A program made the position numbers and the translations under genes. A model generated the notes under the pieces. The model saw only the letters and a program-made list of their open reading frames with translations. It made no database searches and had not been told where the DNA came from. Shown here in pieces: positions 9,484 to 51,938 of a stretch of DNA of 55,569 nucleotides (position 1 is its first letter; every line of letters starts with the position of its first letter). The stretch is from positions 3,967 to 59,535 of the forward strand of contig MU271468.1 of assembly GCA_021432655.1 (NCBI GenBank), in the 5' to 3' direction. This DNA is from Atractiella rhizophila (lineage: Eukaryota).

Positions 9484-9950
9484 GGTGTATCTGCGGAATC
9501 GTTGAACTGGTGGCGTGGCGAAGATCAGGGCGTCGCGTCGTCAGCAGCTGGAGCTGGACGAGATTTAAACCTTATTTTATTCTTCACTAATTGATGCAGA
9601 CAAGGAAACAACCAAAACCATGCCTAAACAGGGAATTTTTTCAGGGCTGTGTTGATCACCCACTGCTTTTTGTTCCGTCAGGCTCAAAACCTTGCTGACG
9701 GAACTCAGGAGCGATTGTTCATGGATTCGCGACGTCGCCCAAGCGATCCGAAGCATGCACAAAGGAGCGTTTGATGTGGAAGAAAATATTCCTGAATCCT
9801 GACAACTTGCACAATGCCAACAATAACTTCTATCCACCCGGTCGCTAAAGCTCAATTGTCATCCAATATTCAACTGAATCCGGTTAATTCTGTGACTAGC
9901 TCGAATTCAGATATTGAAAACTCACATAATACCCAAAACACACTATCTCA

Positions 9951-12900
9951 TCATTCGCACACAAACTCTTCCGTTTGACCTTCGACAACCATTTTAACTT
10001 CGTTTAGAACCTTCGAAGTTTCTTCATCCACCTTCCCACCATCGATAACCTCCTTCAACCGTGTAACCGCTCCACCTTGTACGGAAAGGGCTCGAATTGA
10101 TTCCGATGTTGAAGGTAGTTTGACGATAAGGACCGCGAGGAGCCTGGCCGCTCTGAGGACGAACTGAGCATAACTGAGTCAGGAAGACTTCATGAGAGTA
10201 CAGAGAACTCATACATCTACGTTTTCGCTCTTCAGGAGTTTGATGGCGTATTCAACAGCACCAGCCGCCGCCATTGTTCTTGCTCCATTCCCACCTTGCT
10301 CTGTTATCCTTCTTGCTCCCCAGGTATAATCGTAAGGTTTCCGCTCGTCAGTTGCCGAATCTTCTTCGTCCAGGTACTTCCTTACTCCCTCCGCGACTGC
10401 AGCAAACCCTTCACCTTCCTCCCCGTCATCGCAGAATCTTGCGATGATAGGAAACAAAGTCATGACATCGTTATAGTGGCTTGAAAAGTCGGTCATGGCT
10501 CCCTGGAGGAGGGCGTTAAGTACGTCTGAAACTTTCAATTGCGCCGCAAATGACTGTGGGACGGTAGAGATGAACTGCGCCAGGTCATCGAGCGGCGCGT
10601 TCTTGTTGACAAGCCTACTAGCTACGATTTCGAAGGACGGAACCAGGGCGGCAATGAATCCTTCTTCATCCGCACGCTGCCCCATCGCCTTGAGAAAACG
10701 CGCACTTTCTTTCCATGCATAAGCATCCTTCCCCTCAAGTCCCTTGATAGCCAATTGCACGGTGCCACACTCCAACAGGACCTTTCGAGCGGAGCTAGAA
10801 ACGAGGGCGAGAACGCGCGTTCGTTCAAGCAGCTGGAGGAGGGACAGACTCTTCTTCTTCTTGTTTTTCCCTTGGGATACTGAAACAAACGCTTCTTCCA
10901 GGCTCTTCTGTAATTTATCTCGCCCTGAAGCCGTATGACAAGCCAATATTCCGAGTAGAGGGACAAAGGAGGTAACCGGGGCATCCTCGTTCTTGAATAG
11001 CGCAAACAACGCGTCCAAAAGACCTTTACTTTCGTCCGCAAGGCACGCTATCGCTTCCTCTGATCCTTTCGCAAGGTCGAAGAGTGCCTCAGCCACTCGA
11101 GATGCGTCCCATATGTCTTCTCCCTTCACCGCATTGGCTGCCTGACTGACGGTACGATCTTCCTTGAAGAAGTCCGAGCGTAAAGAAGTTCGGAGTGCTT
11201 CATCAGGACATTTTGCGAGTAGAACGCCAAAGGAAGAAAGAGTTGACAAGTCTAACTCGTCCGACACTGACAGTACGTCTAATAGTAACCTCGCGGCGCC
11301 GCCTTGACAAAGTCCTAACGCAAGCTGCGGGCTCGCTGAAGCAATCGTATCCAAAGCACCGGTGTGGGAGGTCAGGAGAGGTAGGAGAGAGGAGACAGTC
11401 GTAGATAAGTCGGACGAAACATGATTCGCGAGGGAAACGAGGACTTTAAGCACGCTTGAACTATCGGAGAGTTGTAAAGAGAGCTTGAGGAGGGGGGAGA
11501 GCAGCGGTTGGGCCGTTTGGATGGCGGGGAGAATCAGACGGAGGATTTCGACGACAGTGTCCGCATGTCTAAGCAGCTCAATTAGTCACGCTTTCAAATC
11601 CAAGCAAAGGGACAGACGATTGACAAAGGTTCCTTTCTTCTTCAGCGCGAGTGTCCCAAGCCTCTACCTTCTTCAAAAAGGCCTCTGAAGCCTCCTTGTA
11701 CGCCTGACTTTCACCGGATGGGTCATCTTTCCACACCTCCGGCTCAGGAGGATATTCCTTCTTTTCCTTGTCCCAGTCGTACGGATGCAGTTCGAGCATG
11801 AAGACGAGATCTCGAACCATTCCCTCATCCCCGATCCCATGCTCCGCCCATGATAAAATCCAAGCCTGCCCACCGTTCTCTTCTTCGACTTCGAGGAGAC
11901 GAAACATGTACATGCAAACCTTGAGCGCCTCAAGCTCCCTCCTCCTAACGATGCGACAGATCATGGTCGCGATATCCGGACTCTTCCTTCCAACCTCTGC
12001 GTCCACTCCATCAGCTGCGAGGAGGCAACGCACCCCCTCTAGAATAGCTTTATCAGCCTTCAAATCATCTTCTTTCTCCAACTGAGTTCGCAGAAGCTTG
12101 AAGACAATATCAACGGCGCCAGCATCTACCGCTGCCTGAGCAACCCGTCTCTTCTGCCTTCCAGCGTGATGACCTTCATATTCTCCATACAGTGATTCCC
12201 AGAAATACACGTCGTGTTCCCCTTTCTCGAGCAACACGCTGAATGCATGTCGTAACGCCTCTTGCCCATTTTCAAACCCCCACGCCAGCCTGCAGAGTAA
12301 AGATAGGCCACCTGCTCGCGAATCTTCGTGACGAAGAAGCTGAAGCGCAGATGAGAGGAAGGTGAGGGAGGAATCGAGTAGCTTCTGCTTCGTCGGGCAA
12401 GGAGGGAGGACGGAATCGGGATCATGTTCATCGTAGCCCCAACTCTCAGATCCATCCTCGCCACTGACCAGCTGAGCAAAAAGAGACGCGCAAGCGCCGG
12501 CAAGCTTCCTGTCCTCGTGCTGAAGATACGGCAGCAGTTTGGACAGATGGAAGTCATCAGAGAGAAGAGAGACAACTTCCGATCGCTGAGGCGAGTTCTC
12601 GATATCTTCCCCAGCTGGGTTTTTGGACGGGGAGTATGAGTCGAAGAGGTTGCTGAAGATAGAGAACAGTGTTGGTGTTGGGCTTGCCTCTAGAGTAGAG
12701 AGGAGTTGAAGCAAAGAACTTTTATCTTGAAGAAGATAGTAGCCTGCAATTTGTTCAATCTCCATAAACTCGACCATCAGTCCCTGTATTACCACATCTT
12801 AACGATTAGGTTGGGATCCAGGCAAAACGAACCAGCAGGTTTTCATCCTTCGCTTGAACCACGTAGTTCCACAGTCCAGCCTCGCAAGTGTATCTCCTCA

Positions 12901-14357
12901 AATCAACAAAGCTGTCCTTTACGCCTTTGATGACTTGAAAGACATCATCCCTGGTTGCTTCATTGAAGATCTCTTTACAGGCCGTTGTGCATGCGTCGAA
13001 ACCCTCCTTCCCATCCGAAAAGCTGCCTATGACCCATTCCAAGCCTGCACTTTGAATCGCTTTCTCCCTGGAACCAATGCACTTGAACAGCTTCTTCACG
13101 ATGCCATCACCGGTCATTATTGCCCCCCTCATGTAAAGCTCTTCATTTTTACTGAAGAAAAATCCGATAGCCTTAGCAAGTACTTCAGGGTTTGAAGTAG
13201 ACATGAAAATTTGGGTGGAGATGTAGAACAGAAAGATTTTAGGCTCGGGATCTTTATCGATGGCGTCGTGCTCCAGAAAGAGGTCGTGGTCGGAAAGATG
13301 GGCGATCAAGCTGATAATCGCGACCTGAATCTGAGGATAGCCACGAGAGGCATCGTCTGCCATGAGCATCAGAAGGAAGTCGAAGGCACCGCTGGAGATG
13401 AAGACATTGTCTACCGAAGTCCACCCGAATAAGACTGACAGCTCCCAAAATTCGAGAATTGAGATCTTCTCCTGCTCGCTGAGAGAGGCCACGGAAGAAA
13501 GTTGCGCCTTGAAATGATTAGCCAAAGTCGCTTCCCTTGCTTTCGTTGAACTAGTCTTCCGTTTCCCTTCCGCTTCATCTTCGTCCTCGCCTTCCTCCGT
13601 TTCCGTTGCTTCACTATTCAGCATCGCCTCCAATGCCCATCCAATGTCGTTGCGCTCCGAGATTCCGCCATCCTTCAGAGCGCGAATGAGTGTATGCACG
13701 TTCTCATCAAAAAAGGAGTTCTTGGTTGCGACTCCGACTTCGTTCGAACGCAGGAGCTGGCACGCTAGCCCATAAATGGACCCACGGTAGACTTCGTTTC
13801 TCGATTCGTGGAGATCCTTCAAGATGGGAGGCAAGCAGACTGCGAGCTGCAGATATGATCCCGTTGGGTCCTCCTCGATCACAGCTTCGATTTTCTGGTA
13901 GCACTATGCAATAGTCTGATGTCAGGAAACAGCAATGATATATTTCAGAACGACGTACCTTGATGTGCATATCTTCGCCATCCTTGGAGGAGGGAAGCAT
14001 GCCAGTCAAGTATTCCGGAATCTTCTCCACCTCAATCGAACCTAGTTCAAGCCGCGATTTCTCTCTCTCTTTCTCCTGCTCACGCTTCATCTCGTCCCAG
14101 ACCGCATTGGCGATTTCATCCAGCGCATCATCTGCTTTATCTGACGAATCTTCAGACTCCTCTGCGGAGCGAGAAACCTATTCAGCAAAGTAGCAAACAT
14201 GGGAGCCGTACAACAGACCTTCTCCCTCGGAGCTCCCATTCTCCAGGTTTGCTACATCATCAACAAGCTCTTCTTCTTGCCTGTTCTTGTCGTCTGAATC
14301 TCCCAAGATGACGACAATGTGGTCCTCGTCCCTCTCTTCGAAATCACTGGCAGGCAT
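9951..14357 (-). CDS. Large (~1300 aa) alpha-helical ARM/HEAT-like repeat protein of unknown function, multi-exon
   Basis: Long minus-strand ORFs 12806-13882, 11578-12795 and 10209-11453 can be joined by plausible GT-AG introns. ARM-like units include AVDAGAVDIVFKLL, LLECGTVQLAIKGL and AAAGAVEYAIKLLKS. The N-terminus is acidic. Confidence 0.7.
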
Positions 14358-18463: not shown

Positions 18464-21400
18464 TCAATAGCTCAACACTCTGACTCCACCCTTTTCTCCT
18501 GCACCTTTCTTGTCTACCACATTCAACACAAACCTTCCAACGATTGTCTCGGTCTCTTCATCCTTCACACTGCTGACCATCGATCCCCCTCGTCTTGTTG
18601 GGGAAGAAGGACGACTAGGAGTCTTCTTCTCGACGACCCTCACTCTCACTTCGTCGCCTATCCCATCAGAAGACGAAGGGATCCCCCAAAACTCCATAGC
18701 ACCAGTATCAAAGTTTATCCATCCTGGCAATGGTCTTCCATCCGTCTTTACGTCCGTGGGATAGTCGAGAACGGCACGGTAGGAAGTTTTCATGAGCTGA
18801 ATTGCGCGACCCGGACTGCCGATTGAAGCCTGCGGAGGCGGATGGATGGAGGGCGTGAAGTGAAATGGCTCCCCTGGAGAGACGGTGATAGTTATAACAT
18901 CTAACGGCGAGGTAGACGTTCTGTGCATCTTCATTCCTTTAGGTTCAGAACAGACGGTTGCATTTGGGTGATTGTAGAAGTCGTGTGATACCGTGGATTT
19001 GTTCGAGTTGGAGTAGACACCAGGAGATCTGGGCGGAGGGGGATTTGGAGAGTCGAAGAAAATGGCCGAAGTTGCTGGAGACCCCTGAGTCGGCTGATGC
19101 GTTGACCACTTCCTGTTCCTCTGTGAATTTACCTCATCGCTCGCATCTTCAAACATTGGGTCGATTAAATCACCCCTCTCTCCCTTATTTACACTGCTCG
19201 TCCTCCCTCCACCACCAGCTCCAAATTGCATAAGTTTCGGTTGGACGGAACTGGAGTATGAATCCCCATGAACGAGTGCCTCTGCGGAAGTGGAAGTCTG
19301 TCCATCGACGGAGGTGATAGTAAGATTGAACGTGGAGGGGAAGACCATCGAGTCCGTATTAATTCCACGATAACCATAAGGATTGTTAGTCTCCCGCTCC
19401 CTATCACTCTCCGAAGAAGAAATTAAACGGATGGCCGTCTCCCGATCTGTACTTCTGCCCTCTTCTCCGCTACTCTCGTTACTGCTTCCAGGAATACGGG
19501 AAGGCCGTGGAACAAAGTCTCTCCTCTGCCTAGGCAAACTCCTTCTCTCCCTGTCGCTCCCAGTTCCAGAGCTCCCCGTCCTTGACGAATAGAATCCACT
19601 CTCCTCGCTCTCCCCTTCTGAACTAGAACTGTGCGAGCGCCAACTATCCCTCCTCATCTCATCCCTCACGAAGCTGATTTCCGGCGCAGTAATAGGGGTC
19701 GAGCGATCAATGCCCATCCCAAAAAGCGAATTGGCAGAATCAACTCCACCCCGCACTCTTCCGCCTATAACTCCCGCATCACTTTTCCTGCCAAAGATTT
19801 TGAGTAAGTCCATCCTCTTCGCCGCTCCTCTCTTCTCGCTCGAATGCACGAGTTGTTCGAGCGGCCCAGGAACATAAGCCCTCTCCGGAGAGGTAGGCAT
19901 GACGACTCCAATCCACCCAGGCCCGTCCTTCTCCGCTCCAGCAGTCTTCTCCCCAACCAGCGCACCGACGCTCGAAACGCTCGGGCGACCCGTCGTTGCA
20001 ACGGCCGTGACTGAAGAACGACGTCCAATGTCAAAATTGGGGCCATTCAGAGCGGGCGAGAGGAGGGCGGGCGAAGCAGCGACAGAGGGTGCGGCAACAG
20101 GAACTCCATCGCGGCCGTCGTCTGAGTCAGAGTAGTGACGACGACAGCAGGCCATGAGTACGGCGAAGAGGATGAAGGCGCCAACGAAGGCTCCTGAGAC
20201 TGTGGCATAGCCCATCGCGTCGATCAGGCAAGGTGGGACAGCCAGAAAGGAATAACATACCGGCCAAAGCTATCTTCCCTGCTTTCGTCAAATGGCCGTG
20301 TCCTCCTCCTGCCTCCTCTTGATCGTCTCCCCCACTCCCGTCTTCCTCCTCCTCTAATTTCATGACCATCATCGTCGACGAGGTGATTCCATTTGCTGCA
20401 TCTGTACCCGCGAAAGCGATTTGCACATTGCCGTATTCCGGAACGGGATCGGGAACTGTTCCTTTCAGGATCAAGGTATCGTCATCGAAGACCATCCAGT
20501 CCCCTGCCTGAGAAGGTGAGAAGCTTGCAGAATACGAAGCTCCAGGAGCAGTCTCAGCTGGAGACAGGTCGTAAGTGAAGGATTTTCCGGCGTAAACTGT
20601 AAATGGTTCGAGGGTAGGGGCGGTAAAGAGGTCTGGAAAGACTTGTATTGCTATCTCAGTCGTAATCGAGAGGTTGAAAGTAGTGGTGAGCGACAGAGGG
20701 ATGCCCTCGTTATCTGACTTGGAGAAAGATGGAGGAAAGACTCCAGAAATTTCCATTTGGCTAGAGGAAAATGAGAGGAAGGGAAGACTTGAGAGATCGA
20801 CAGTGACACTTTTTATATCCGAAGAGATGAGAGTGCCATTATCCGCCATTCTGAAATCATTCGGATCGATCGTGTACTTCGCTTTTGAGCCAATCGTAAC
20901 GTTCCAAACCCTTATTCCACCCTCTTTGACAGTTAATCCGCCAATGGACGGCGTGAAGTCACTCCAGGAATCACCAGCCGTAGAATTTCCGCCGTCTCCC
21001 AATTCCTCGACGTTCGAAACATGAAGAGTAAAACTCTGTCTCACGTCTCCGAACCCCTCCCGCTCTGAACCCCAGAGGTCAAAGGTGTAAACTCCCTCAT
21101 CCGGCGCTCGAAGACAGTCGAAGGTGACGGTACGGTTATCGAATACAAGCCAGTCAGGCAAGGAGGTAGTGCCGCGTTCCACAGCAGAATAAAAGATCTG
21201 GGCGCCAGAAGAGGAGGTGAACGTGTTATACTCGAAACCGAGTGAGAACGACCAGGTCGGAGGGACGCGTAAAGTACCATCGGATTGGAGGGTACACCCA
21301 TCTCCTCTATCAGCCGCAGACCCCAATTGCCTGTTGAGTGGGACATTTATCGCCGGTGGTGGAGAGGAGAGGAAAAGGAGCTCGAATCCGTCGATTGCAC

Positions 21401-21737
21401 TTGTTCCCGTGACGGAAGAGTTGCCAATGACGGTGATCCATCTGCCCAAATCTTCTCCTTCGGTAACATTTGTAGGAGGTAATCCTGAGAAAGTGCGAGT
21501 GGAAGGGTTGAAGGAGAGCCAAGCCGGTAGATTGTGGGCTGAGTAAATCATGGAATTCGAGGCTGAAAGGTTAGCGGACGAGTAAGGGGCGAATGAGTCT
21601 GGGAGGATGGTAAAGGTGTACGGGAATGAGGGGTGAACGAGTGGCGGGAGTTGATAGGAGAGTGGATGAAGGATCTCGAGCGCCGCCACCGTTATTATTG
21701 TCGTCGCAAAAAGTGTGAAAGAAATTAGAAAGAGCAT
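18464..21737 (-). CDS. AXL2: Axl2-like single-pass membrane glycoprotein with dystroglycan-type cadherin-like (CADG/He_PIG) domains
   Basis: Signal peptide, repeats LPAWLSFNPSTRTFSG, LPDWLVFDNRTVTF, LPFLSFSSSQMEISG and WMVFDDDTLILKG, the VPPTWSFSLGF motif, a TM helix (FVGAFILFAVLMACC) and a Ser-rich tail. One intron near 20215-20260. Confidence 0.8.
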
Positions 21738-23600
21738 CTTCTATCTCGCCAAACTCAGTCAGTGCTTTGACAAACATTTCCAAAAGGGAGGTAGGAGACG
21801 GAAGTCTGGGACATACGGTATCTAGGAATACTGAAAGAAAGGTGGCAAAAGATTGTTGCGATTGTGCGAAAGAACGACTGAAGAGCGCTAGCACTGGCCA
21901 ACTCTACCTAAAGCTCAAGGAGGGGACCTATATATTGCGGTTGTCGAAACTGAATAACGAGCGAACTACTGAGGAAAAAGGGGGAACTACCAAGGACATG
22001 AGAAAGGGTTGGTGGATCCTCGAGCACAATCACGTGAGAGGTAAATATCCTCGTCCGCAGTAGTGCCCGTTATTGTGACCTGTGACCAAGCTCCATGGAC
22101 TTCCTCTTCGAATGGTGGAATAGATCTTTGCATTGATGTACATGGATTGTTGTAGAGAGAATATGGGAGACAAGTTCGTTGTAGTATGAGGGATCCAGAC
22201 AACCTGAGGTGGGTCGGTTCGCGCTGCATCCATTCTCCTCAGGTTCCACCTAAAGCTCCCAACTTGAACATCATTCAAGTCCACTACTTCAACGCTCTTT
22301 TAGGGTTCGCGCTCTGCAGTGGTTTCCCAAAGCCGCTAATTACCGCCAGGTCATAATCCGGGCCCCATCCGTGAATCTTGGAGTGTTGCAGCAGCTCACT
22401 GACCAGATGTTGAGAGGAGAAGTATTAAAGGATTTCTACCATTCCACTTTGTGTACTAATTTTCATGTTAAAACGTGATGAAAGGAGGATGGGCTTCTTG
22501 AGCAAGAAGAATTAAAAGATGCAGAGTGTAAAACTGATGCTGGAGGGAGGACTGCGATAAATCACGCTCTCATTTTTTTGCCCCTTCGTTGGTACTTTGT
22601 GCGGGTTGAGCTCCTTTTCCACCAAGCGTTCCTTCTACCCCATGTGTCATGTAGGTTACCGAATCCAAAACTGGAAAGGCTCACTCGTCACTGACATGAT
22701 ATTGGCCATGACCAAGACCCTGCGGACATCGTCTATGGGAAAGATTTCTACCCTGCCGTCGATGAGGATGCGGTAGCTACCATCAAATTCACCCTGAGAC
22801 AACATGAGAACTCATGACAGACCGCTAAGAGAGGAGAGTGCTGACCTGCAGGACCACATGATTATCGAGAGGTGTATCCATGTAAATTTCTTTTTTTTAC
22901 TGTTACTTGGGCGACAAACTGTTTAGTACGATGACAGGCGACTTGGGTTGCGCTTTTATGTGCAAGATCACTGCGCTCCGGTATTGTGGAGTTGCTTATG
23001 TTGTGGTGTTAAGAATTTAATTTTCTCTTCTGCGGTGCCTATTTATTACTTTCTGATATGAAATCTAGCAAGCTTTATTGATCATCGCATAGCTTGTGGA
23101 TCCTTCTGTGGACGTATCTGTTGGATGGTAAGGAAGGAAGAGCAACGAGTTCAATTACGGTAATGTTGTGCTGGAAGGGCAGAAGAGAGGAGGAAGCAAA
23201 GCAAAGGTCAAAGCTTTGACCCAAAGCAACTTCCAAAAATGCGCCGTTACCGCAGTCCCCTATTAGTATTTTATTCTCACGATCGATTGCAGCTCGAATC
23301 TCGCGTCCAGTTCGTAATTCTTAGGATCTGTGGATGTCTGCCTGCTTAGTTGCAGCGCCTCGTCGAAAGCGTCTCTTGCAAAGAAAGTTTCATGCATGAT
23401 GGTACATACTTGATCTGGGGTTCATCGCTCGATCGTCCGTAATTTTGGACTCGGAGGTTGAATCACGGAAGACTGAGTTATAACCTGAAGTTACTCTAAT
23501 GCTTGTTTCTCACAGCGTCAAACCAAGGCCATGAAGTGGTTCATGCACCGTGAGCAAGTGACGAATTTGAGGAAGGAACCACTGCATACCGTGCAATCAT

Positions 23601-24650
23601 TTGCAACCGATTATACCTTACCATCTTTCACGATCCTTGTGCGCCGCCGAAAAACTTCTTTGCCCTGGTTTTGAATTGGTTCCTTTCCATTGTGATAGAG
23701 TTACTTCGGAAACCTCTTATCAAATCGACAAAGAACGAAAGTTAATACTGACAGACAGGAACGAAAATAAATCAATAGTCACGAAGTGCTGCCTTTGCAC
23801 GAAGGACGGCCGCCTTCACAGTCCCAGCCGAAATCCCAGTGATAGTTCAATCCAACTTTAGTTTCTTGAGTTTCTAATCGCGAATCGTCGTTGTTGGTGG
23901 ATAATAACCATAATTGATTCATTGACCTGAAAGACCAAGCTTACCCGCAGTCAGATCCGGATGTCTTTCTTCATTGACAACGTCCATAAACACGTTAACA
24001 AAGTCCAAAATCACGGCCGGATTGGTCCAGATTGGGTTAATGCAACCTGCCTCAATGAGGATGAAGTTTTGTTTGCCCAATCATGGGAACGTATGAACCA
24101 GTCAGTAGGTATCGACACTGATGCGTGCTTCGGTCGTTTTCTTTTGCTTCGGTCCCTCCCAGACCGTTGGACATCAGGAACAAAATGTTGAGGAAATGTG
24201 TGCCATAGAAAACCAACCGAAAATCGTGCCGAATTTCATAAGGTTGAAGCTTATTTCAAAAAGAATGTTCAAACAAATGAGCATTTGGTCCTTTTTTTCC
24301 TACAATATTCCTCATTGGTGGGACAGATTGATGCTTGACATCCGAAAGAGCGGCAATGATTGGGTAGATAACATCATCCACACACAAAGACCCGGCAAAA
24401 CCAAGAATGCCTACAATCTCTGTCACAGTGCCACAGTTTACGACGATTCACTCGCAGAATAACAACCTTGACATTGGCACGTTGACATGGCACACTTCGG
24501 CCGTATCAGTGTTACCGAAAAGAGGCTTGAAATTGGGAACAAAACGCTCTTTTTCCAAATATTGGAAGGATTGCACAACCAGGGCACGGTTCCTGCGTCA
24601 CCACCACTTAGTCGCCTACCGAAGTTCATGACGGAACATCAGCTCTGACT
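23601..24650 (+). pseudogene. Decayed, apparently intronless ORF remnant of unknown origin
   Basis: ORFs 23601-23861 and 23961-24191 share a frame, separated by isolated stops. Protein-like sequence continues with frameshifts to about 24650. No family recognised. Confidence 0.25.
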
Positions 24651-25232
24651 GGCGCGTCGATATTTGCGCTGCAGCCCTCATCTCCCACGCTATGTGATTC
24701 TTATGAACCTCCATGAACTGATGAGATAACAATTGGTGTCAGCTGCCTTATGAGCACTCCCGCAGGTCAACGCTCGGCGCTCAAGCGCTCATCGTTCAGA
24801 CTTGCGGCACTTGCGCTGGGAATGTCGAATGACGCTGTTCCACCGTCAATCTAGTGCTGTCGTAAGCTTATACCCAATTGCTTAGTATAGTTGTAGAATC
24901 GACGTAGTATTCCGAAAGGGAATCGTTCCAAGGAAGAATAAGTAACTTGGTGAAAAGATCGTGCTGCAGACAAAATAAATTTCGATGAAAGTTTTGGATC
25001 GGAAGATATCTTTCGTCATTCGGCGATCGTTGAAGATACATTAAAAGGAAGAGAATACTGGGCTAGGAAGGATGACCACGTTGACTACTGAACATGTTTC
25101 TCACCTTTCTACGGGCTCGGAGCGACCTAACGCTCTGCGTATCCAGGTCACCCTCCATCCATTTTGCAGGCCGAAGGTATAGGTGACAGCTTTCCAAGTC
25201 AACAAGTTGGCATCTGCGCCAACCTGAGCACG

Positions 25233-25745
25233 ATGGCAGAGCAGGGCCAAGTTCCGCTGGACAATCAAACATTGCACTCTTCTCAAGTTTGTTCCTGCTC
25301 TTCCTCATTCAAATTCGGGCTGATGAAGGAGATTAGATAGACCATGAAGCCAACTTTGAGTCCGCAGGCACTGAGCTTGCTTTTCAACTCCATGAATTGG
25401 CAATGAATGTTCGTTTTCTGCATTCGACGAGACGATGTTTGCGATTGAATGTGCGTGGTCTCCGGTGGTTATGGATTTGGCGCGTCGAGGATTTCAAGCT
25501 TGTCCCTATGAATTTGGAGAGTTTTATGAGGGTGATTCCTATGTGGTCGCGGACGTTCGTTACTTTGCATTAATACTGTGATTCGAAGTAACTCAATGCG
25601 GAGTGAGAAAGTTGGGGAGGAACACTGGAAGCAGATACTGAAGGATGACATCTTCTTTTAGCTCGGTGTTGAAACGACACAGGAGGAAGCTGGTACCGCA
25701 GCCTACCAGACTGTAGAAATTGACCGAATTTTGGTTGCCTCGTCT
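25233..25745 (+). pseudogene. Truncated gelsolin/severin pseudogene, copy 1 (5' half, introns retained)
   Basis: Matches 31618-32165 ([56 protein letters not shown]) with frameshifts and mutated splice sites. Confidence 0.85.
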
Positions 25746-26321
25746 TACAAATACTAAGGAGTTGATTTCGATCCCAGTCACGTGGCCAATAAACAAAGTG
25801 GCCAATAAACACAGTTCCTCAGTCAGACAGTTGTAGTGACGAAGAGAATCTCTGGGACGGATTGGGCCACGGATGCGCATGGAGTGGCAGGAATATGTGG
25901 TTGAACGAATTGCTTATGGTCAAAGGTTTTGACAGCCGTGGGTCGGTTCTAGTTTTCTTGCTGCCGTTGATTTCCTATTGCCTGCAGTCGGGTTTGCGCT
26001 TCACGGCAGCCTCACAGTCGCTCACGAAGTGTCCCATGTCAGTCAGAGAATTACATACCAGAGTCTATAAAACGTCGAAAAGTTATTGTGACCTACTTAC
26101 CGGTCTCAGGGCGTCAAACTCAAACTCGACGGATGTACTCACTACGGTGGTTACGTTCGGAGAAGTCATTATCATGAGGCATTAATGACTATGAGGCATG
26201 AATGGAGGAAGGGAAGTGGAGAAGATTTGGGTAAGATCGTTAAGAAAAGAAAAGAACAGGGATAGAGGATTGGAGAAAGCTGTAAAAAACGAAAGTTTAA
26301 AAACATTTTTGAATAATGCTT

Positions 26322-26894
26322 TCACATTCTGGTCCCACCGTCACTGTGAGCGCCTTGTGTTGCAAGCTTTACTACAGTCTCAGTGGCTCCTGTCGTCGCG
26401 ACCCCATTTAATGCTTGCATGTGTTGTTAGAGCAGAAAAAGCATGTTATTGCAGAATGGTAGGGATGTCCTTGTCAATTTTTGTTTTCAAGATAAAGTGA
26501 AAACAAACTGGGGCGAGAATCTGGGACATTGCTGCAGGACGTAAGAGACTCAAGGATTCCGTAAGTAGTAGAGACGAGAGCAATGTGTTCAGTTTGTCGT
26601 CGCTGCGTTGGTGGCCAAATCGTTGACGACGTTGCCAGGAGCTCCCCGACCCTGCACAGCTTCATAACATGCGTCATGAAGGCCTTTTTAGAATGTAAAG
26701 ACAGCTCACTGGTCATGGCGATAAGCCTGATAAGGACGTCGAGAGCCTCATGTCGTCGGAAGATAGTCAAGTTGTCGTTAATGCGAACTGCGTAAGTACC
26801 ATCACCCTAAGACAGGAATGGATATCTGTTCTGGCATAGAGAGGATGCATGAGCTCACAAGGAGAACAATACTGTTGGGGTTAATGGGCGGCAT
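26322..26894 (-). CDS. Orphan spliced microprotein A (67 or 74 aa; two candidate last exons)
   Basis: Exons 26894-26859 (MPPINPNSIVLL) and 26806-26710 (GDGTYAVRINDNLTIFRRHEALDVLIRLIAMT), then either 26659-26589 or 26413-26322 (...DGGTRM*). Canonical GT-AG introns; minus-strand TATAAAA at 26958-26964. Paralogous to 29460-29743. Confidence 0.6.
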
Positions 26895-27249
26895 ATCGCT
26901 TCTGTGTTTGCTTCGCGAACTAGTTGTGGACTAGGACTGTGAGAGTGCTTTGGCTGCTTTTATAAGAAGGGCTGCCACCTTCGGAAAACAAGCATATCGT
27001 GCCGTGCCAATTCACCGTCATGAATCTTCGTCCAGGATTGATGATACAGGAATAGCTGGGAATAGATCATAGTGGTCATCTTGGAAACCTCAACGCGAAA
27101 GACGAGTTTGGGCGTTCAGATCGATCCGACTTCAGATCGGGCGCTTTCTATATTCATTCAAGGTAGCAAACTCTTACTTTCTCTTGGCATAACTTTTTCT
27201 GGAAATTGACTCACAAGTTGTCTCGAGGTCCTTCTCCCGCTCTGCTTCT

Positions 27250-27610
27250 ATATTATCATGCGACGAGCATACTGCTCTCACATCATGAAAGCTGAAAGAG
27301 ACGTTGATACTGGTTGAGATCACTACAATGAAGTAAAGAGAGTTGGGGATAGCATTTTGAAGCTTTAGGCTACAGCTTATCCATCGTATCCTACCAAAAC
27401 GCCTTGATCAGCTGGGAAAAATAATTCTACCACTGTCACTTCTTTCAGCTGGTTTGTTACACTCCAAACTTACAGACGATGGGACGGGGGTTGGATCTCG
27501 CATTTACGCATAATGCTCACTTGAAATCAAACATAAACCTTGTCGTTGCCAAGCAAAAATGGAGAACCAGAGATCGGACAAACAATGTTAGGTGCGTCTC
27601 TTTGTATTCT
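27250..27610 (+). pseudogene. Degenerate RNase III-domain remnant
   Basis: In order across frames: IMRRAYCSH, HYNEVKRVGDSILKL*ATAY..YP, QLVC..NLQTMGRGLDL, TMLGA. This resembles the RNase III pattern ALTH...NERLE.LGD..LKL...LV.N..L...L.L...EA++GA. Stops and frameshifts present. Confidence 0.35.
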
Positions 27611-28739
27611 GAACTCGCATTCTTCTCCCACAAGCTTCTAAGCACCTCCAGAAAAGTAATAACCGAGTAGATGAGATCTAGAGGGACTCGTTGAGGAAAC
27701 GAGGGGGCTTCTGGAAGGGATGCTGAGAAAGCATCCAAAAGAGGTATGACATGGTTAGACAAAATTTCAGGCGCACCCCAAACTGCATTGTGATCACAAC
27801 AGGTCGGTTGGAAGCAAGCCGCTTCTCGGTATCCTAACTCCTCCCCTAATTTCGGGGACCGTGATTTCTGCAGAACGAGAGCAACGACCAAAATACTCTC
27901 GTTGATCCACAACCAGCTGTAACCCAATCTTGACGGTTATGGTGATCGGCCGTACTTTGGAGCGGAGTTCCTGTTCTCTTCCACCACGTCACTTTAGAAG
28001 GAAGGAGAGCTACGATAAACTCGAAACGTCCCAGAATTGACATTCGATCACCATCTATCATTTTCTCGGATGGTTGGTGGGGTGAGGACTTAAAGTCAAA
28101 TCAAAGTTCCCTTGTGACTTGATGGACCTGATAGAGCTTTCGGCACGATATTTGACACCCTTCATCAGGCTCCCACACCATAACAATAATTTGCGAAACC
28201 GTGTTTGCTAGAAATTACACTCAGCATCATGAAAAAGAACCGCTTTGCGGTGATGCACATCTTCTGATCCTGATCCTCGCTTCAGAAATGGGCACGTGCA
28301 GAGGGGAGGTGCATAGTTAGAATTGCCATTTAAGACTCTGTATTAAGAAGTAAGAGTGTGGACTGGAAGTTACGTTGCTACTTGTGTCGCGTGCCCATAT
28401 CCTCCTGGTAACTGTTATTATTATGTTAAGCCAATGCCACACTTGGGCGAGCAACGACCTTGCTTTTTCGTCCTCAAGTGTGGGGCTAGTGTTTGTGGGG
28501 AAAGAAATCTTTGGCACTTGCTTGTAGTAGTAAATACTGTCTTTAACCGGCCATACGTTTGTATCCTACAACAAGACAATTTTAAGGAGCAGAGGAAACA
28601 TTGCTATCAGTAAGGGGCTTTTTAAGGACTAACCGCTGCTATCACTGTCTTCGCTGCTTCGTGCGCAGGTGTTCGTATACAGCACAATCTATCATGACAT
28701 TTTGATGCACCGTGATTGGCACGTGCTTCCTACGCTGAA

Positions 28740-28890
28740 GCTGGAGGCTTCGGAGAAAGATGGGAAGGAGATACAGAAGCATGACATCTTCTTTTGGCTC
28801 GGCTTTGAAACGACGCAGGATGAAGCTGGTACGGCAGCCTATAAGGCCGTAGAGTTGGATGAATGTCTGTTGCCTCCTCTCAGAAATACT
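28740..28890 (+). pseudogene. Gelsolin/severin fragment, copy 2
   Basis: [35 protein letters not shown] plus the start of the next intron, nearly identical to 32045-32165. Confidence 0.85.
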
Positions 28891-29459
28891 GAAACAAGAG
28901 AAACAGCAGGTAGGAAAGAGTTCCCTGAATCCTGTCACGTGGCCCGTAGTCCGACCTTGTGGTTGACGACGTGAGATGTTTGGCAATCTCAGGGACGAAT
29001 TTGAGATATAGACACGCATGGAGTAGGAGGAATATGTGGTTGAGCGAATGAATTACTTGTAGTCAAAAGGTTGGGCAGCGGTGGGTCGGTTCTGGTTTTC
29101 TTACTACCCTTCCTTTTCCTTTTTCCTGCAGTGCCGTTTGCGCTTCATGACAGCCTCACAAAGTCGCTCATCGCCATCACAAACTGTCCTGTGTCAGTCA
29201 GGGAATTACGCGTCGAAGGTTATTGTGACCTGCTTGCTGGATCGACTCAGGTAGTCAAACTTGAAAGATGGATACACAATGGTTACTGTCGGAGAAGTCA
29301 CTTATCATGAAGTACTGACGACTATGAGGCATGAAATGGAGGAAGGGAAGTGGATAATATTGAGTAAGATCGTTAAGAAAAGAAGACGCAAAAGAACAGG
29401 GATAGAGGGTTGGAGAAAAGTCGTGAACTAAAGATATTTTCAAAACTGTTGAATAACGT

Positions 29460-29743
29460 TTACATTCTTGTCCCTCCGTCAATGTAACGGTCTTGCGCGC
29501 TGCGAGTAGCTTTCGCATCACATATGAGTGCGTTTCGCTGAAAGGGGAGAGGGGACCTCACCTGTCACGGTGCTGAGGATGTGAAGGATATAGAGGACTT
29601 CTTCTAAGCGAAAAATTTCCATGGTGTTGTCGACGAGCATGGCGTAGCCGCCGTTTATTTCTCCCTAAGACGGATTGGGAAGCCGCTATGACAGGGAAGT
29701 AGGAGCTCACAAGTAAGATAACTTGAGGGGTTGGCGCATTCAT
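29460..29743 (-). CDS. Orphan spliced microprotein B (61 aa)
   Basis: Exons 29743-29711 (MNAPTPQVILL), 29664-29562 (GEINGGYAMLVDNTMEIFRLEEVLYILHILSTVT) and 29509-29460 (ATRSAQDRYIDGGTRM*). Intron positions and phases match copy A. Confidence 0.6.
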
Positions 29744-30372
29744 CACGTTGTTGCTTTCTTTCGTGATAGTGGTTGTGAGATGTTTTGCAGAGCACTTCGA
29801 TGGGCTTGCTGCTTTTATGGGCTGGGCTTGGTAAGCCGACCGAGCTTAAGGATTTGGCGCAAATACTTGATCGGGGTTCATCTGAGGGAAGACGGCAAAC
29901 TGTAGGGTAACAACTTGATTAATCATTAATGCTCTGTGATGCGAGATAGACGAAGGACAATTCTTTCAATTTCAACTGTGGAGTGAATGTATTTTTCCAT
30001 CAGTCCAGCGGGCGAGATGCACAAGGATGTTGATCTCTCAGGTTTCTGCCACCCATTGATAACTTTTCAGCACCTAAACTTTATCCGTCTGCTGACTTCT
30101 CAAGCCTTCCAGCCTATTAATATGGTTTCGGCACTCGTGTCCTTTATTCAATGTGCTCGTCAGTCTACCTGCTGTGCGAGCCTCGATGCAAATCTAGGAG
30201 AGTTCTTTCGTGTGCACCTGCTCCAGCATTTCAAAACTTCCAATCCATTCAGAGATGGCTGACATTCCTGCATGATATGATTACAATAATGTAGCACAGT
30301 GGGAACGTTGTTGAAGGAGGCTTCTCGTCGCCTTATGACGGATCTAGCCCATAACTTTCTCAGCCCATTGCA

Positions 30373-31265
30373 TTAATGCGATTTTTCAGGTATCTCAAGA
30401 TTGAAGTTAATCAGAACTGTGAATGTTCCGCAAACCTTGTTTTTCATGCAAAGTTGAGATTCAGAATTCTGATAAAAATTCCGGTGCAGGCCTTTCCCCT
30501 GAGATGAGGCACACGAACATTTAAGGTCACGCTCATCACAAAATCTTTTCGCCAATATGTTCTCTACTCCTGATTTCCGGCAAACCAATATTATATGATC
30601 CCCGCAACTTCACACGAATGCACCTCATGTTCATCCCTTTAATATCCAATTCAGGTTGGTGTACAAGCTTCTGGAAACGTATGTAAGACACGGATGAGGA
30701 TTCATTCCAGGCTGCGGTATTTCTTCTCCTAGGTAGCATTCAGTTTGCCTCGAGCTCGCACAGTCACTTTTCAACACCTCCGCTCCACCGAAGATTAGCG
30801 ATGGAAGAAAATAGTCAGCACGACAACCCAATCTGGAGTAGCTGCGGCCTACTTCTGAGACTAACCCCTGCTTTCAAGAAGGTTCTGAGTGCTGGAAGCC
30901 CATTATCTATGTTTGGAAGTGCGAGAAAGTCATGCTCGTTTCCCGCGACTCCTCCAAATAACTTCAAAGAGGCGATGAGACCCCAGATGACGAAAGAAAC
31001 GAACTCTGGTTGTACCATCCTTTGCGGTATATTTTGGGTGATGATATTGACAATATGTCGTTGGCAACTGCTATCCCTTCAACTTCCCAGCCTCAATAAG
31101 AATGTGTAAAACAAAAAGTGAGTGATCCAACCGTGAACGTCTTTTCGTGCGTCCGTATCACTCATTCTGAGGCGCAACTTCTCTACTTTCATCCAAATTT
31201 TCTATCACTGTCCGATGTCAGAGATAATCCTGAACATTTCAACTCGGACTAATTCTAGGCCGAGT
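30373..31265 (-). pseudogene. Possible decayed F-box/LRR-like gene
   Basis: A chain of short Leu-rich minus-strand ORF fragments (LELVRVEMFRIIS; LPALRTFLKAGVSLRSRPQLLQIGL), loosely similar in character to the F-box/LRR gene at 42467-44050. Heavily disrupted. Confidence 0.2.
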
Positions 31266-31617
31266 AAGGCAATCCTTTATGAAGGAGCAAATAAATAACG
31301 TGTAGATCTAAACGATTCCTGCAGTCTGGCCAGCTGCACTCCTGAATTCACTGTCTCGGATACTTACGCAAGTCCAAGTTAAGTATATGTCCATCTAAGC
31401 AGCCTTTAAGTAAGCTCTCGCTTGTGAACTTCTCCTAGTCTCGGGAGAACATTGACAGATAGGATACGCTTCTCTCTCTTTACGGTTCCAAATGTAGCAC
31501 CTGGATGTCAAAATTCTGGGGATCGCAGGAAGTTGTTCCAACGTTCCAGCATTCGGTACCGCTGGAAAGGCACCGCCCAGCTGCAATTTGACAAACATAA
31601 ACGAGACGTGGAACAAA

Positions 31618-32963
31618 ATGGGGGAACAGGGCCAGGTTCCTCTCCAAGAATCCAACATCTCACTCTTGGGGTCTCAAGTTCGTTGCCACCCTCTTTGTCC
31701 TGAATCTGAGCCGATAAACAATTTTGCGCAGATAGATCATGAAGCCAAATTTGAGTCCGCAGAGACTGAGCTTGCATTTCAACTCCCGGGAATCGGCAAT
31801 GAAGGTTCGTTTTCTGCATTCGACGAGAAGATGTTTACGATTGAATGTGCGTGATCTCAGGCGGATTGTGGATTTGGCGTGTCGAGGATTTCAAGCTTGC
31901 CCTCTGGCCCCGAGAACGTTATGAATCCGGAGAGTTTTGTGAGGGTGACTCTTATGTGGTCCTGCAGGTTCGTTCCTTCTCATCAATTCTCCGGATCCGA
32001 TTTAACTCAATGTTTATGGTAGAGTGAGAAAGTTGGGAAGAAAGACGGGAAGGAGATACTGAAACATGATATCTTCTTTTGGCTCGGCGTTGAAACAACG
32101 CAGGATGAAGCTGGTACCGCGGCCTACAAGACTGTAGAGTTGGATGAATGTTTGTTGCCTCCTCTCATCACGGAACAGAAACTAAATCTATCTATGGGAC
32201 GGACAAAGTGTTAGGAGGTGGACCGGTCCAACATCGCGAATTAGATAACTACGAATCCTCTGCCTTCCTCGGTCTGTTTCCCCGAGGTTTTACTTCTCTT
32301 CAAGGGGGGCACAAGAGCGGCTTCCATCATGTCTCCCCGACCTCCATCGAGCTATCCGAACCGCGACTCTACCTCCTCCTTCCTCCTTCCCAAATCAAAC
32401 AGCTTAAGCTTCCCCCATCATCCCTCTCGCACACAGCCATCTACCTTGCCGATAAAGGCGACAAGACCGTCCATTGGAATGGCTCTAAATCCTCTCCGCT
32501 CTTGAGAGCAAAGGTGGCGCAGATGGTCAGACGATGGACGGATGCGAGAGCTGGAGAATGTACGCTCGAGGTTGTAGATGACGGCCAAGGTGATGCACCG
32601 TTCTTCAGCCTGATCAACGTCTCCAAAGTCGAAGTTGAATGGGACGACGATGCGCATCTGTCGCGAAAGTCGGTCATCAGTTCCATCGAGATTTATCTAC
32701 TCCCGGAACATGGAGAGCCTAGCAACGTCGACTGTGCCGGAAACGTGAAGGATTCACTGAGGACAAGTGAACTGTATATCCTTTTGACGAAGAATACGGT
32801 CTATGTTTGGGTAGGACAAGGCTTGGACACGAGAAGAAAGAAGTTTGCGATTCCTTCTGCTCAGAAGGCCCTCTTTGGATTGCGGAAGGGGGGCAGGTTG
32901 CCTATTGTTAAAGTTGTGGAAGGATACGAAGGGAGTCAGTTTGATAAGGACGTTGGAATATGA
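31618..32963 (+). CDS. Three-domain gelsolin family protein (severin/fragmin-like), multi-exon
   Basis: [26 protein letters not shown]...[10 protein letters not shown]...GDSYVVL...[27 protein letters not shown]...PVQHRE...[10 protein letters not shown]...VYVWVG...VVEGYE. Confidence 0.92.
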
Positions 32964-35037: not shown

Positions 35038-35255
35038 AGTCCTTCTAGGCTTTTCCTCTTCTTACTGTACTCTTCTTTGGGATGTTAGTGAGGGAAAATA
35101 ACCAGATACAGGCAAGTGCAGAGAGATCGTCAGTGTATTGCTGTTTGTCTTCGGATCCGAAGAGCAGACGTCGTTAGGATTTAGAACCGTTCGACGACCA
35201 TCTCCCCTTTTCTCGCCTTTTTCACCTTCGTTTTCAAGGGTGTTGTGGGGTGACC

Positions 35256-37905
35256 ATGTCCACTATAGAGCAACAAATCCAACGAGGGGCCATTGGAGGG
35301 TCATTTGGCCCTTTTCCCGCTCAATCCTCATTTCGAGGTGATTCCTCTGCAGTCGGCGACGATTCCTTCGACTCCCCAAATCCAACTCGTCGCCTTCTCC
35401 CCCGCCAATCTTCTTACGGCCGCGACTCGCGATACTCTACTACTGGCGCTGAACTTTACCCCGAAGAGTATGGGAAGGAGGACGCTCGCCTATCCGCTTA
35501 CCTCCCTCCAGGCGCGGCTGGAGGTATGGCCCCGGGAACCGAATTCGAGGATGCACGCATCGCAAGACAACAGTCCGGCCTCTCTTACATGTCGTCTTAC
35601 TCCAACCCACCTCCCTCTCCCGGATTCCCTGGTGGTGCAGGCCCGTCGCCTAGTTATGCGGAGACAATGAGCAGCCTGTTGTGGACTGACGCAAATAAGG
35701 AGGGCGACGATTGGCTTCATGACCCCGGAAAAGCTTACGGGAGCAAAGGAGCTTGGGGAGCAGGAAGCTCAAAGAATCGTAGACGTCCTGGATTCCAACT
35801 TTTTTCCAGTAGAGGTTTCTTGAATACTGCGGCCTTGCTCATCCTTGTCGCGGGTTTACTCGCTCTCTTCGTCGCCTGGCCTATCTTTGATTTTTATCAC
35901 AACCACAATCTCCTCAACAACGCAGGAGGCTTCTTCGGTCCAGGAGGGACGAACGCAAGTGGACAGGTCGGCGAAGTGGCAGGCTGGAACGGCCTTGTGG
36001 ACAAAGACACCCAGGACCCAGTAAAGAAGTGGACATCCCCAGTCCAAGGTGATACGCTCGACATTGTCTTCTCAGACGAGTTCAACGTCGATGATCGCAC
36101 GTTCTATCCGGGAGATGATCCATTTTGGGAGGCAGTAGATTTACATTATTGGGCCACTGCGTGCGTTGACCAACTCCTCACGCCTACTTTCTCGTAAACG
36201 TGAAAGCTGACGCTACCGCAGGGATCTGGAATGGTATCATGTACGTTGGTTCCCGATGGTGGGACTCTATGTTGATGAGGCGTGGAATGATAGCCTGATG
36301 CGGTTCGAACTCGCAATGGAAACCTCGAGATTACGATGACAGAGGAACCGCAGAGCGGACTGAATTGGAAGTCAGGGATGCTTCAAAGCTGGAATAAGTT
36401 CTGTGCGTTCTCTTCTCTTCCAGCCTATCCGTTCCATTCTGCGTGCTGTAAGCTGACAGCGATTTCCGAAGGTTTCACTGGTGGTTACATCGAGGTCAAC
36501 GTCTCGCTCCCTGGAAATCCTAATTGGTACGCCTTTCGCTTCCATACGGGATTCGCTAAACGGCCTTGATGAAGGTTCGGGTTATGGCCTGGAGCGTGGA
36601 CTATTGGCAACCTCGCTCGACCTGGTTCGTCTCCCTTCTTACATTTACTTCCTCTTCCCCATCTTCTGAGCGTCTCTCATAATGTTGTAAGGCTACGGAG
36701 CAACGAACGATGGTGTCTGGCCTTATTCCTACGATGTGTGCGATGTCGGTACCTACCCCAACCAAACTCGAAAAGACAACACTCCATCAGCAGCATTGAC
36801 TTCTGGTAGCTCGGACTACAATGGAGAGCTCGCTTATTCTCCGGGCCAGAGGTTGTCAGCCTGCACCTGTCCAGGAGCGGATCATCCCGGTCCCACACAG
36901 AATGGAAAGTTCGTTGGACGCGCGGGTCCCGAAATCGATATTCTCGAGTCTCAGTCTTGGTTCGCTGGTAAAGCCGGCGCTTCCGTTTCGCAGTCTATCC
37001 AGGTGGCTCCCTTCGACTCAGCCTATGAGTTCAGGAACGATTCGACAGCGGCAACGATCTATAATGCTGAGACATCGGTTTACAATTCGTTCAAGGGAGC
37101 AGTTTATCAGGAGTCTGTCTCGGTGATTTCGAGCACAGATCCACAGGCTTACAACGGGAATGTCTATAAGACTTACGGTTTGTTCTAGCTTTCAGCGTTA
37201 GTGAGAAACCTGAGGAAAGAGTAGGATTTGACTACAAGCCCGGAAAGGATGGATGGATCACTTGTGCGTGCATCCTTTTTTTTACCGTACTTCGTCCCGA
37301 GTGACGTACTTCGTGATGGAAAGGGTACTACGATGGGCAGGCCACTTGGACTATGAACGCTGCAGCGATTGGACCGAACACACTAACCGAAATCTCTCAG
37401 CGCTTAGTATCTGAAGAACCGATGTCGATCGTTCTCAACTTTGCGTTCTCAACTAAGTTCCAAGGCGACCCTTCATATGGTAGCATTGTATTCCCTCAGA
37501 CTTTCTTCATCGATTACGTCCGCGTCTATCAGAGGGGAAGTGTGAATGTAGGATGCGAGTACGCCGTTCTTTTGAAATAAGGAGGTGGAAGGAATGCTGA
37601 TGATGCTTGGCTTATGTACAGCCCGAAAGATCATCCAACGGCTCAATATGTACGTCTTCTCCTGTTTCAGAAGGAAGACCTGCTCATTGGGATATACAGA
37701 TCCAAGACCACCCGAACGCTTATATGAAGTATGTTCCTTCCTTCATCCCCATAGTGAAGCAACAATTAACTTTTCACGTTTAGCCCGCTCACCACAACCT
37801 GGGCACAAGCTGGTTATCAGTGGCCAGTGAACGGAGATTACGGTCAGTCCCTTCGTCCATACACCGCAGTATGGAAACTGAAATGAGAGAACAGACACCT
37901 GTTAG
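35256..37905 (+). CDS. KRE6: KRE6/SKN1 beta-1,6-glucan synthesis-associated GH16 type II membrane protein, copy 1 (intact)
   Basis: DDWLHDP, SSRGFLN + TM helix, VFSDEFN, DDPFWEAVDLHYWAT, SGMLQSWNKFC, GLWPGAW.IGNLARPGYGA..DGVWPYSYD.CDVGT, PGQRLSACTC, PEIDILE, EPMSIVLN, IDYVRVYQ. Confidence 0.93.
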
Positions 37906-38301
37906 ATAGCTTGAGCTGAGTAAAACCCGTGCTTAAATCCTTAGTGACGGAATGAATGGACAAAACGGACGGACTGAACTTTCGCTTCACTTTTTTGCCT
38001 CTTTCTTATGACCTACAGATTATTCGCTTTTAAGTAATCTTGCCCTCACGTGCGATCCTGATCCTGTCATACTCCCTTTTGGCTTCGTGTGTAATGGTTC
38101 TTTGTTTCAATTATTCACTTGTGTCCAGCCCCAAAAGCGGATAAGTCCCATTTCAAGTTCGGTACACAGGTACGTAAAAAATATGAGGATGAAGGCTGCA
38201 GACTGAATCGAAACACGAAGATACGGTGAGGGCTCGAAGAAAGCTTGAGCCACTATGATGGTTTGAGGTAAGATGGCGTTATGACTGTAGGGATGATTGA
38301 C

Positions 38302-51700: not shown

Positions 51701-51938
51701 GCAAAATCGCCGCATCGAAGCTAGAGCAGCGCGTTTGGATAATATTCTTCGGGATGTTTGTGAGGGAATGTACACAGGAGACAGATAGGTGCAGGTAAGA
51801 CAGATAAGTGCAGATAATCGACTGTATGTTCCGATCCGAATTGCCGACATTGCGAAGATGGATTTAGTAGCTAGTTCTACGACCACCTCCTCTTTTCTCG
51901 CCTTTTCACCTTCGATTTCAAGGGTGTTGTAGGTGGCC

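Follow-up and report, generated by a model that had tools for sequence, protein, structure and literature searches.

The COMM domain consists of three strands and a helix and is an obligate dimer that buries its core (PMC13392464), and in PC4-like units the helix is preceded by four strands (PMC7549692). Excess diversity confined to narrow windows is the reported signature of het loci (PMC10890737), and somatic incompatibility in basidiomycetes is described as poorly understood (PMC8229728). We describe here two small three-exon genes, A and B, on the minus strand of a 55,569-nt stretch of DNA (the window; contig C289, positions 3967–59535, in a 51.5-Mb assembly of 1,998 contigs), together with their relatives. 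The window is fungal and contains short spliceosomal introns, and its source, Atractiella rhizophila, is a root-associated basidiomycete, in agreement with the listing from our literature search.

Genes A and B are real and spliced. They belong to a family of proteins of 47–70 aa that we take to be species-restricted and intracellular, and whose working part would be a 42–47 residue core encoded by exons 1 and 2. This core is predicted to form an antiparallel sheet of three strands and, after it, a long helix, and the exon-3 tail would be a disordered, largely dispensable appendage. Copies turn over by tandem duplication and loss, old alleles probably being kept at some loci, and what most deserves further study is how deeply the copies that face each other on colinear contigs have diverged.

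Splicing of genes A, B and C

The splice evidence consists of contigs from one public run, X1, which is not recorded as RNA and was handled as cDNA-like on the sole ground that GT..AG introns of several genes, lying on either strand, are missing from its contigs; its depths were not used for ranking genes. All four introns of A and B are joined in X1 contigs. The starts (26894 for A, 29743 for B), the three-exon layout, the intron phases (0, then 1), the TATA or TATA-like box upstream of each gene, both second exons, intron 1 of A and both introns of B agree with the original prediction:

26958–26964, minus strand: putative TATA box of gene A (TATAAAAG at 26964)
26859–26894, minus strand: exon 1 of A, 12 codons, first strand of the predicted fold
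26807–26858, minus strand: intron 1 of A, 52 nt, phase 0, GT..TAG, joined in an X1 contig
26710–26806, minus strand: exon 2 of A, hairpin and helix core
26660–26709, minus strand: intron 2 of A, 50 nt, phase 1, GT..AAG, joined in an X1 contig (joint 26710–26659)
26589–26659, minus strand: coding part of exon 3 of A, 23 codons plus TGA; contig continuous over 26659–26441
26322–26413, minus strand: exon 3 of A as originally predicted, ending in DGGTRM*, an unproven alternative last exon
29813–29819, minus strand: TATA-like CATAAAA of gene B (CATAAAAG at 29819)
29711–29743, minus strand: exon 1 of B, 11 codons
29665–29710, minus strand: intron 1 of B, 46 nt, phase 0, joined in X1
29562–29664, minus strand: exon 2 (core) of B
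29510–29561, minus strand: intron 2 of B, 52 nt, phase 1, GT..AAG, joined in X1
29460–29509, minus strand: coding part of exon 3 of B, ending in DGGTRM*; product of 61 aa
28872–29459, minus strand: 3′ untranslated region (UTR) stretch, continuous with spliced B in one contig; the contigs do not mark the true end

Gene A had been taken as a single unit from 26894 to 26322, but its joined form closes at 26589 and encodes 67 aa ending in ...AATTN. The contig runs unspliced past the TGA ending at 26589, as far as 26441, and the AAG acceptor of intron 2 lies at the same position as that used in B. A 74-aa long form ending in DGGTRM* is possible on paper, as a prediction from sequence alone; it requires a 296-nt intron, with a plausible branch point at 26430 and a plausible AAG at 26414. 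No joint to 26414 was found in X1, where positions 26244–26440 are uncovered, so that absence of the long form is not implied. A tandem exon duplication as the source of the two candidate last exons was unsupported by shuffling (P = 0.09 for protein, P = 0.63 for DNA). Upstream of the TATA box of A, a low-depth contig joins across a 67-nt intron at 27148–27214 (minus strand). This intron does not extend the frame of A, and the RNA may be a longer leader or a separate RNA.

The contig of B is unbroken from 29509 to 28872, so in this contig ATG|TAA in DGGTRM* does not serve as a splice donor into a longer protein. B has a counterpart, C, on contig C1046, whose intron 1 is joined in X1, the same run in which B is spliced. 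The TATA-like segment is absent upstream of C (L011:5008–5037, compared with window 29784–29852). Gene C is spliced despite this, and its contig extends further upstream.

The DGGTRM end and tandem duplication

Genes A and B lie in a gene-poor stretch of 10 kb between an Ig-repeat gene and a gelsolin-like gene, in which pieces of the latter are repeated:

frame reaching 21740: Ig-repeat (He_PIG) gene, left flank of the gene-poor 10 kb
25233–25745, plus strand: decayed 5′ fragment of the gelsolin-like gene, 76% identical to 31618–32165, part of a tandem duplication
25616–26357, minus strand: truncated B/C-type 3′ end, comprising last codons and a 3′ UTR-like tract, with a gelsolin-like piece at its low end
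28754–28882, plus strand: second gelsolin-like fragment, 91% identical to 32039–32167
31618–32963 (limits approximate), plus strand: gelsolin-like gene, right flank of the array (Pfam PF00626, E 3.7e-11), three introns joined in X1 contigs

The two DGGTRM* stretches differ at three positions, all silent as originally noted, an outcome found in 1.0% of 50,000 trials with three random substitutions. This 21-nt stretch was chosen after the fact, and 71 of the 545 21-column windows of the duplicated tract are equally well conserved. The duplication (25616–26347 against 28752–29485, 71% identity) has DGGTRM at its edge: homology of the copies starts ca. 15 nt before DGG, and homology to B and C within the originally predicted exon 3 of A is confined to approximately 26357–26322. 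Over the tract, the three copies (behind A, in B and in C) show 81–84% identity, and their mismatch downstream of the stops is 17.4%, 15.7% and 18.9%, i.e., they are about equidistant. In the coding exons, the proportion of synonymous differences (pS) is 0.68 for A/B, 0.73 for A/C and 0.32 for B/C. Both gelsolin fragments stop at the same point of the source gene, 32165–32167, which is what one would expect if a unit reaching from B into the gelsolin 5′ end had been duplicated in tandem. In the simplest reading, a B-type duplicate would have been cut off, leaving its 3′ end immediately downstream of an older paralog, A, and the DGGTRM at 26322 is best read as that end.

The copies are dispersed and pieces of an adjacent gene have been duplicated, which could also point to a transposon, the genes being part of one or a fragment captured by one. 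We hold this to be extremely improbable: both introns are kept in the copies, comparison of window positions 21301–32300 with other family loci matched the gene body only (two short hits, with C1046 set aside), and none of the 25 inverted-repeat pairs listed brackets a copy, Helitron-type ends not having been specifically searched.

On a star tree of the three copies, four of the five changes in the 21 nt are silent, and the branch leading to the copy behind A carries a single one of the changes. Between B and C, two silent changes and one replacement separate the last six codons, as against no silent changes and eight replacements in the preceding ten tail codons. Local constraint on these last six codons is thereby suggested, not established. 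The excess of silent changes would suit a constrained signal, i.e., a weak type 1 peroxisomal targeting signal (PTS1) or a released peptide, yet the strict PTS1 pattern, [SAC][KRH][LM], fits none of 17 models, and the ends vary. The basidiomycete Ustilago maydis has non-canonical PTS1 ends, ARI and SNL among them (PMC9133605), so that a PTS1 limited to B and C is conceivable, and two family models end in ARV. A signal of either kind is nevertheless improbable: TRM ends two of 16 gene models (B and C), joined A ends in TTN, the motif sits at the edge of the 81–84% identical tract, and the ratio of nonsynonymous to synonymous rates (dN/dS) is 1.03 in the tails of Ew and E, another pair of copies. 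Basidiomycete mating pheromone precursors carry a C-terminal CAAX; a lipopeptide precursor of this kind was rejected, as a Cys four residues from the end occurs in none of the 17 models.

The idea that a constrained C-terminal motif is the working part of the family was not supported. A loose end motif, [TS]-[ND]-[EG]-[GA]-x-R-[NM], is seen in B, C, E, F, H and P0007, and tails evolve freely. DGGTRM is not what defines the family, and a false lead is removed. Peptide precursor and PTS1 are minor readings because the tail motif is rare and tails vary across the family.

The family, its core and its predicted fold

The prediction of a pair held for A and B and was an understatement, since the window has a third copy and the genome a whole family:

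22570–22881, minus strand: third family copy, Ew, with exons 22881–22846, 22793–22685 and 22631 (or 22634)–22570, splicing predicted

Its product has 68–69 aa, CATAAAAG occurs at 22960, and its counterpart on C1046 is E, with 36 of 47 core residues identical. Single-protein searches of the genome gave 19 matches with copy F and 40 with P0009, two of the latter being first-exon matches that were dropped. Their union is 49 places on 25 contigs (13 on C271), a count that includes second-haplotype copies, the redundant pair C1266/C1391 and weak unchecked matches. Contigs C1266 and C1391 (L018, L019) are 99.8% identical over 3.1 kb, which is probably assembly redundancy and inflates copy counts. 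An in-frame acceptor and a phase-1 donor, both required by the script, are present in 31 distinct candidates; 12 candidate rows have no donor of the pattern used.

Sixteen genes were modelled, 15 of which have AAG as the second acceptor; the choice was made partly by homology, and X1 contigs show this joint in A and B. Close to this AAG, second introns of the family often contain a CAG or TAG that is not used (e.g., window 26660 and 29510). Copy D stops two residues after exon 2, a whole subfamily ends 2–3 residues past the helix, and one copy has a stop in exon 1. Exon 2 of A and B is identical at 12 of 34 columns; in the core motif originally given, I.LL|G...YA+..DN...IFR..E.L.+L, 'DN' is offset by one residue between the two. 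In a tree of the 16 cores, B, C and D group together (96/96), and A belongs neither to this B/C/D group nor to the E/Ew group, a placement that is moderately supported (84/83 and 89/87).

Gene models H and Q correspond letter for letter to public proteins P0005 and P0007. A profile from 17 exon-2 peptides, searched against 1.84 billion cluster representatives, returned 11 hits, ten of them hypothetical proteins of Atractiella rhizophila; the other, P0010 (946 aa, with repeats), matched 13 residues at profile positions 4–16 only and was discarded as spurious. In a second search, five of 1,113 candidates scored, all named Atractiella rhizophila. The public relatives (KAH8921356.1, KAH8914954.1, KAH8917721.1, KAH8921109.1, KAH8921118.1 and others) have no functional name, and several of the public models carry long extensions or fuse into other frames (P0003, P0004, P0006, P0008). 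The first exon of P0009 lies ca. 850 nt upstream of exon 2, though there is a family-type first exon 52 nt upstream (C217:59046–59102, C271:53885–53941); it is possibly an alternative first exon or a mis-model. Neither protein search returned the product of A, B or Ew. A and B are probably unannotated in public protein sets, because their local profile scores (42 and 50 bits) exceed that of the weakest listed hit (37.7), yet they are unlisted.

These results agree with the original proposal of a lineage-restricted family of spliced microproteins, where restriction means that relatives were found under one species name, small genes often escaping annotation elsewhere. A metagenome scan with P0005 gave two loci out of 513 candidates, both of 69% GC and without a profile match, and they were rejected. 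Pfam contained no family for four full-length members at E 0.1, and one of 17 exon-2 peptides matched DUF7293 (E 0.11). The best E in a PDB sequence search was 0.1. No paper on the family turned up in a literature search that covered mostly titles and the starts of abstracts, with subscription journals and supplements outside its coverage. The family amounts to a large set of spliced, selected genes of fewer than 70 codons that open reading frame (ORF) tracks miss and public models capture in part, and, having no named domain, it is a test case for the origin and expansion of new small folds.

Purifying selection on the core, one of the signs originally reported, was seen in Nei–Gojobori counts on exons 1–2 of the 16 core sequences. 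The pS exceeds its nonsynonymous equivalent (pN) in 114 of 120 pairs, and dN/dS is mostly 0.2–0.5, being 0.35 for A/B (Fisher p = 0.010), 0.25 for B/C (p = 0.004) and 0.34 for Ew/E (p = 0.02). In a second subfamily, the facing pair I271a/K217 (L030:1440–1686 and L037:1410–1660, on C271 and C217) has 11 replacement and two silent core differences, a hint of diversifying selection there.

The fold was predicted with AlphaFold2 from a 33-row alignment for P0005, the product of paralog H, which shares 44% identity with A over exon 2. The model has strands at residues 7–10, 13–18 and 21–26 and a helix at 27–46, with a mean predicted local distance difference test score (pLDDT) of 76, a predicted template modelling score (pTM) of 0.44, a block pLDDT of 87–90 over residues 11–40 and a low one, of 55–62, in the tail. 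The beta-hairpin and amphipathic helix originally predicted are supported in this paralog, to which exon 1 adds a third strand. The Tyr opening strand 2 is invariant and a helix Leu is present in 31 of 33 rows; the helix has a mean hydropathy of 2.1 and a single polar stripe, with approximately three quarters of the surface hydrophobic. Of the strand columns that point outward, column 23 holds D/E in 19 of 33 rows and column 27 in 17. Foldseek against PDB and BFVD gave no match at E 0.001, and a search of ESM Atlas (top score 0.81) yielded no feature hit that could be used. With VIA-align, 162 chains reached Z ≥2, with COMMD chains as six of the top seven rows (Z 3.0–3.6), followed by PUR repeat III and PC4; these scores may merely reflect a common arrangement, and empty fold and domain searches do not make a fold new.

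A PC4- or PUR-like dimer binding single-stranded nucleic acids would account for PUR repeat III (Z 2.9–3.0), PC4 (Z 2.9), MRP1/2, Sub1 and YdbC among the VIA rows, and is very unlikely in view of the three strands of the model against four in PC4-like units (PMC7549692), the acidic outward strand columns and an isoelectric point (pI) of 4.1–6.7. Better placed, albeit still unlikely, is a membrane-active or unconventionally secreted effector or toxin, acting against plant roots or other microbes, whose hydrophobic helix would insert into membranes or bind a target. The small size, the large and expanding family, the lineage restriction and the hydrophobic helix resemble effector families. Against this, the N-terminus has no hydrophobic run of the signal type (over the first 25 residues, 9-residue hydropathy is at best ≤1.9), there are 0–1 Cys per protein, short of a cysteine-rich effector (by a hydropathy scan, no dedicated signal-peptide predictor having been run), the best 19-residue hydropathy is 0.7–1.9 and exceeds 1.6 in one of 17 models, i.e., there is no clear transmembrane stretch, and the net charge is neutral to acidic.

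Facing copies and comparison with known systems

A two-haplotype assembly would fit the data, because parts of the window each have one close second contig: C412 (96%), C1046 and C351 (99%). Contig C1046 is colinear with window positions 21317–32265, and its identity per 200 columns is 0.97–1.00 in the left flank, 0.81 at Ew/E, 0.77–0.88 at B/C and 0.96–1.00 in the gelsolin gene; gene content differs, with Ew, A, B and the relic in the window versus E, D and C on C1046. At two other loci, F faces G (22/43 core residues identical, pS 0.58) and H faces Q (17/40, pS 0.56) between flanks of 93–98%, with one copy per contig in the stretches compared. At the three loci, the identity of colinear contigs thus falls from 93–100% in flanking genes to ca. 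75–88% around the family gene; identities of ca. 0.75–0.8 over half-gapped blocks are probably unalignable DNA. Over five facing pairs, core identities are 35/45, 36/47, 22/43, 17/40 and 19/42 (42–78%), with pS of 0.21–0.70. The background pS, 0.039–0.079, comes from four ordinary ORFs of one region (8504–13903 versus C412), which limits its weight.

These data could also come from small binding proteins with a structural or regulatory role that make up an ordinary orphan family. The depth would then stem from old tandem duplication with differential loss, segmental duplication or introgression in loosely constrained, fast-changing intergenic DNA, and not from balancing selection. The differing gene content of the window and C1046, the gelsolin fragments duplicated along with the unit, the 13 matches on C271, the exon-1 stop in one copy and intergenic DNA of F/G that is alignable over approximately half of the columns are all in keeping with this. 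It has less room for F/G and H/Q, with one copy per contig, matching flanks and a pS of 0.56–0.58, ca. 10 times the background, nor does it readily yield the narrow drop in identity that, at each of three loci, has the family genes at its centre. We consider it a real possibility, though doubtful.

Elsewhere in the window, a spliced low-depth contig at 27956–28243 (plus strand), with an intron at 28081–28133 and no open frame across it, is possibly a non-coding RNA in the array. The gene pair at 35073–38250 and 51745–54966 is 83% identical, has further copies on C351 and C541, and is presumably of the KRE6/SKN1 type, involved in glucan synthesis. A tandem pair at 47864–48698 and 49340–50167, 72–80% identical in three segments, we take to encode HD-domain hydrolases. 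An exact 36-nt direct repeat lies at 55347–55453, its copies 71 nt apart.

In our preferred reading, the core would probably be unable to bury its helix alone and would form intertwined homo- or heterodimers, like COMM and PC4-like units. Dimerisation would run through the helix and the inner face of the sheet, and a variable, mostly acidic outer face would be presented. This exposed face could be a bait or recognition surface in a conflict that keeps old divergent alleles, for which we put the chances somewhat below even; self/non-self recognition, defence against a selfish element or toxin–antidote pairing would be types of such a conflict. The overall picture, of small dimerising modules under birth-and-death evolution, with balanced alleles and a probable role in recognition or conflict, is held just as tentatively. 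It is rather unlikely that the proteins are allele-specific self/non-self determinants, dozens of COMM-like half-domains that would pair combinatorially, with idiomorph-like alleles at several loci setting the dimers; if true, this would be a recognition code without HET, NLR or pheromone parts.

Several points weigh against these proposals. The family is known here at the nucleotide level and by prediction, the fold was predicted for paralog H and not for A or B (pTM 0.44), and the best VIA row has a Z of 3.6 and a root-mean-square deviation (rmsd) of 4.4, with none of 48,161 chains at Z ≥5. Selection is unseen in some pairs (dN/dS 0.82, p = 0.39, for B/Ew; 1.7 for I271a/K217), and some facing pairs are shallow (M54/N271c, 45/45 identical; C1034/C217, 98.7%). 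Allelism is read from one assembly, and segmental duplication could have given rise to its second contigs. The facing copies A and D are not closest relatives in the tree, so part of the depth goes back to an old tandem array whose members were lost differentially, and splicing of B and C in the same run argues against simple allele-versus-allele killing.

Compared with known systems, the family model agrees in topology with the COMM domain (8esd, 8p0w, 6bp6, 9q6a), three antiparallel strands being followed by a long helix, though at a weak Z of 3.6 at best. Like COMMD proteins, the family consists of paralogs, and its hydrophobic surface would need a partner, as judged here from hydropathy. 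COMMD proteins differ in having a helical N-terminal HN domain, in contrast to just 6–8 residues before strand 1 here, in sequence and superposition (4–10% identity, no Pfam match, rmsd 3.2–5.1 Å) and in being ancient and widespread, whereas the microproteins were found under one species name. The protein is thus not a COMMD, and may work like a COMM half-domain. PC4-like, PUR and Whirly proteins (5fgo, 8chw, 6ycs, 2ltd; Z 2.3–3.0) share the sheet-then-helix unit, there in a swapped dimer, but have four strands and a nucleic-acid-binding surface, unlike the three strands and the mostly acidic outward columns with few aromatics of the family model.

The last comparison is with het/vic loci. The microproteins have no HET, lectin or PII domain, exist in dozens of copies and include B and C, which are both spliced in one run; no HET/NLR-type domain was found among the eight of the window's 80 long ORFs that were scanned with Pfam. 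The likeness to loci such as Podospora het-B lies in a small protein, as the small PII-like Bp is one of the het-B partners, and in highly divergent haplotypes within a narrow window between conserved flanks (PMC10890737). Such narrow-window divergence is found here at three loci, if the second contigs are alleles. Should the divergence islands hold, they would mark these loci out as direct candidates for a conflict system of basidiomycetes, be it somatic incompatibility or another.

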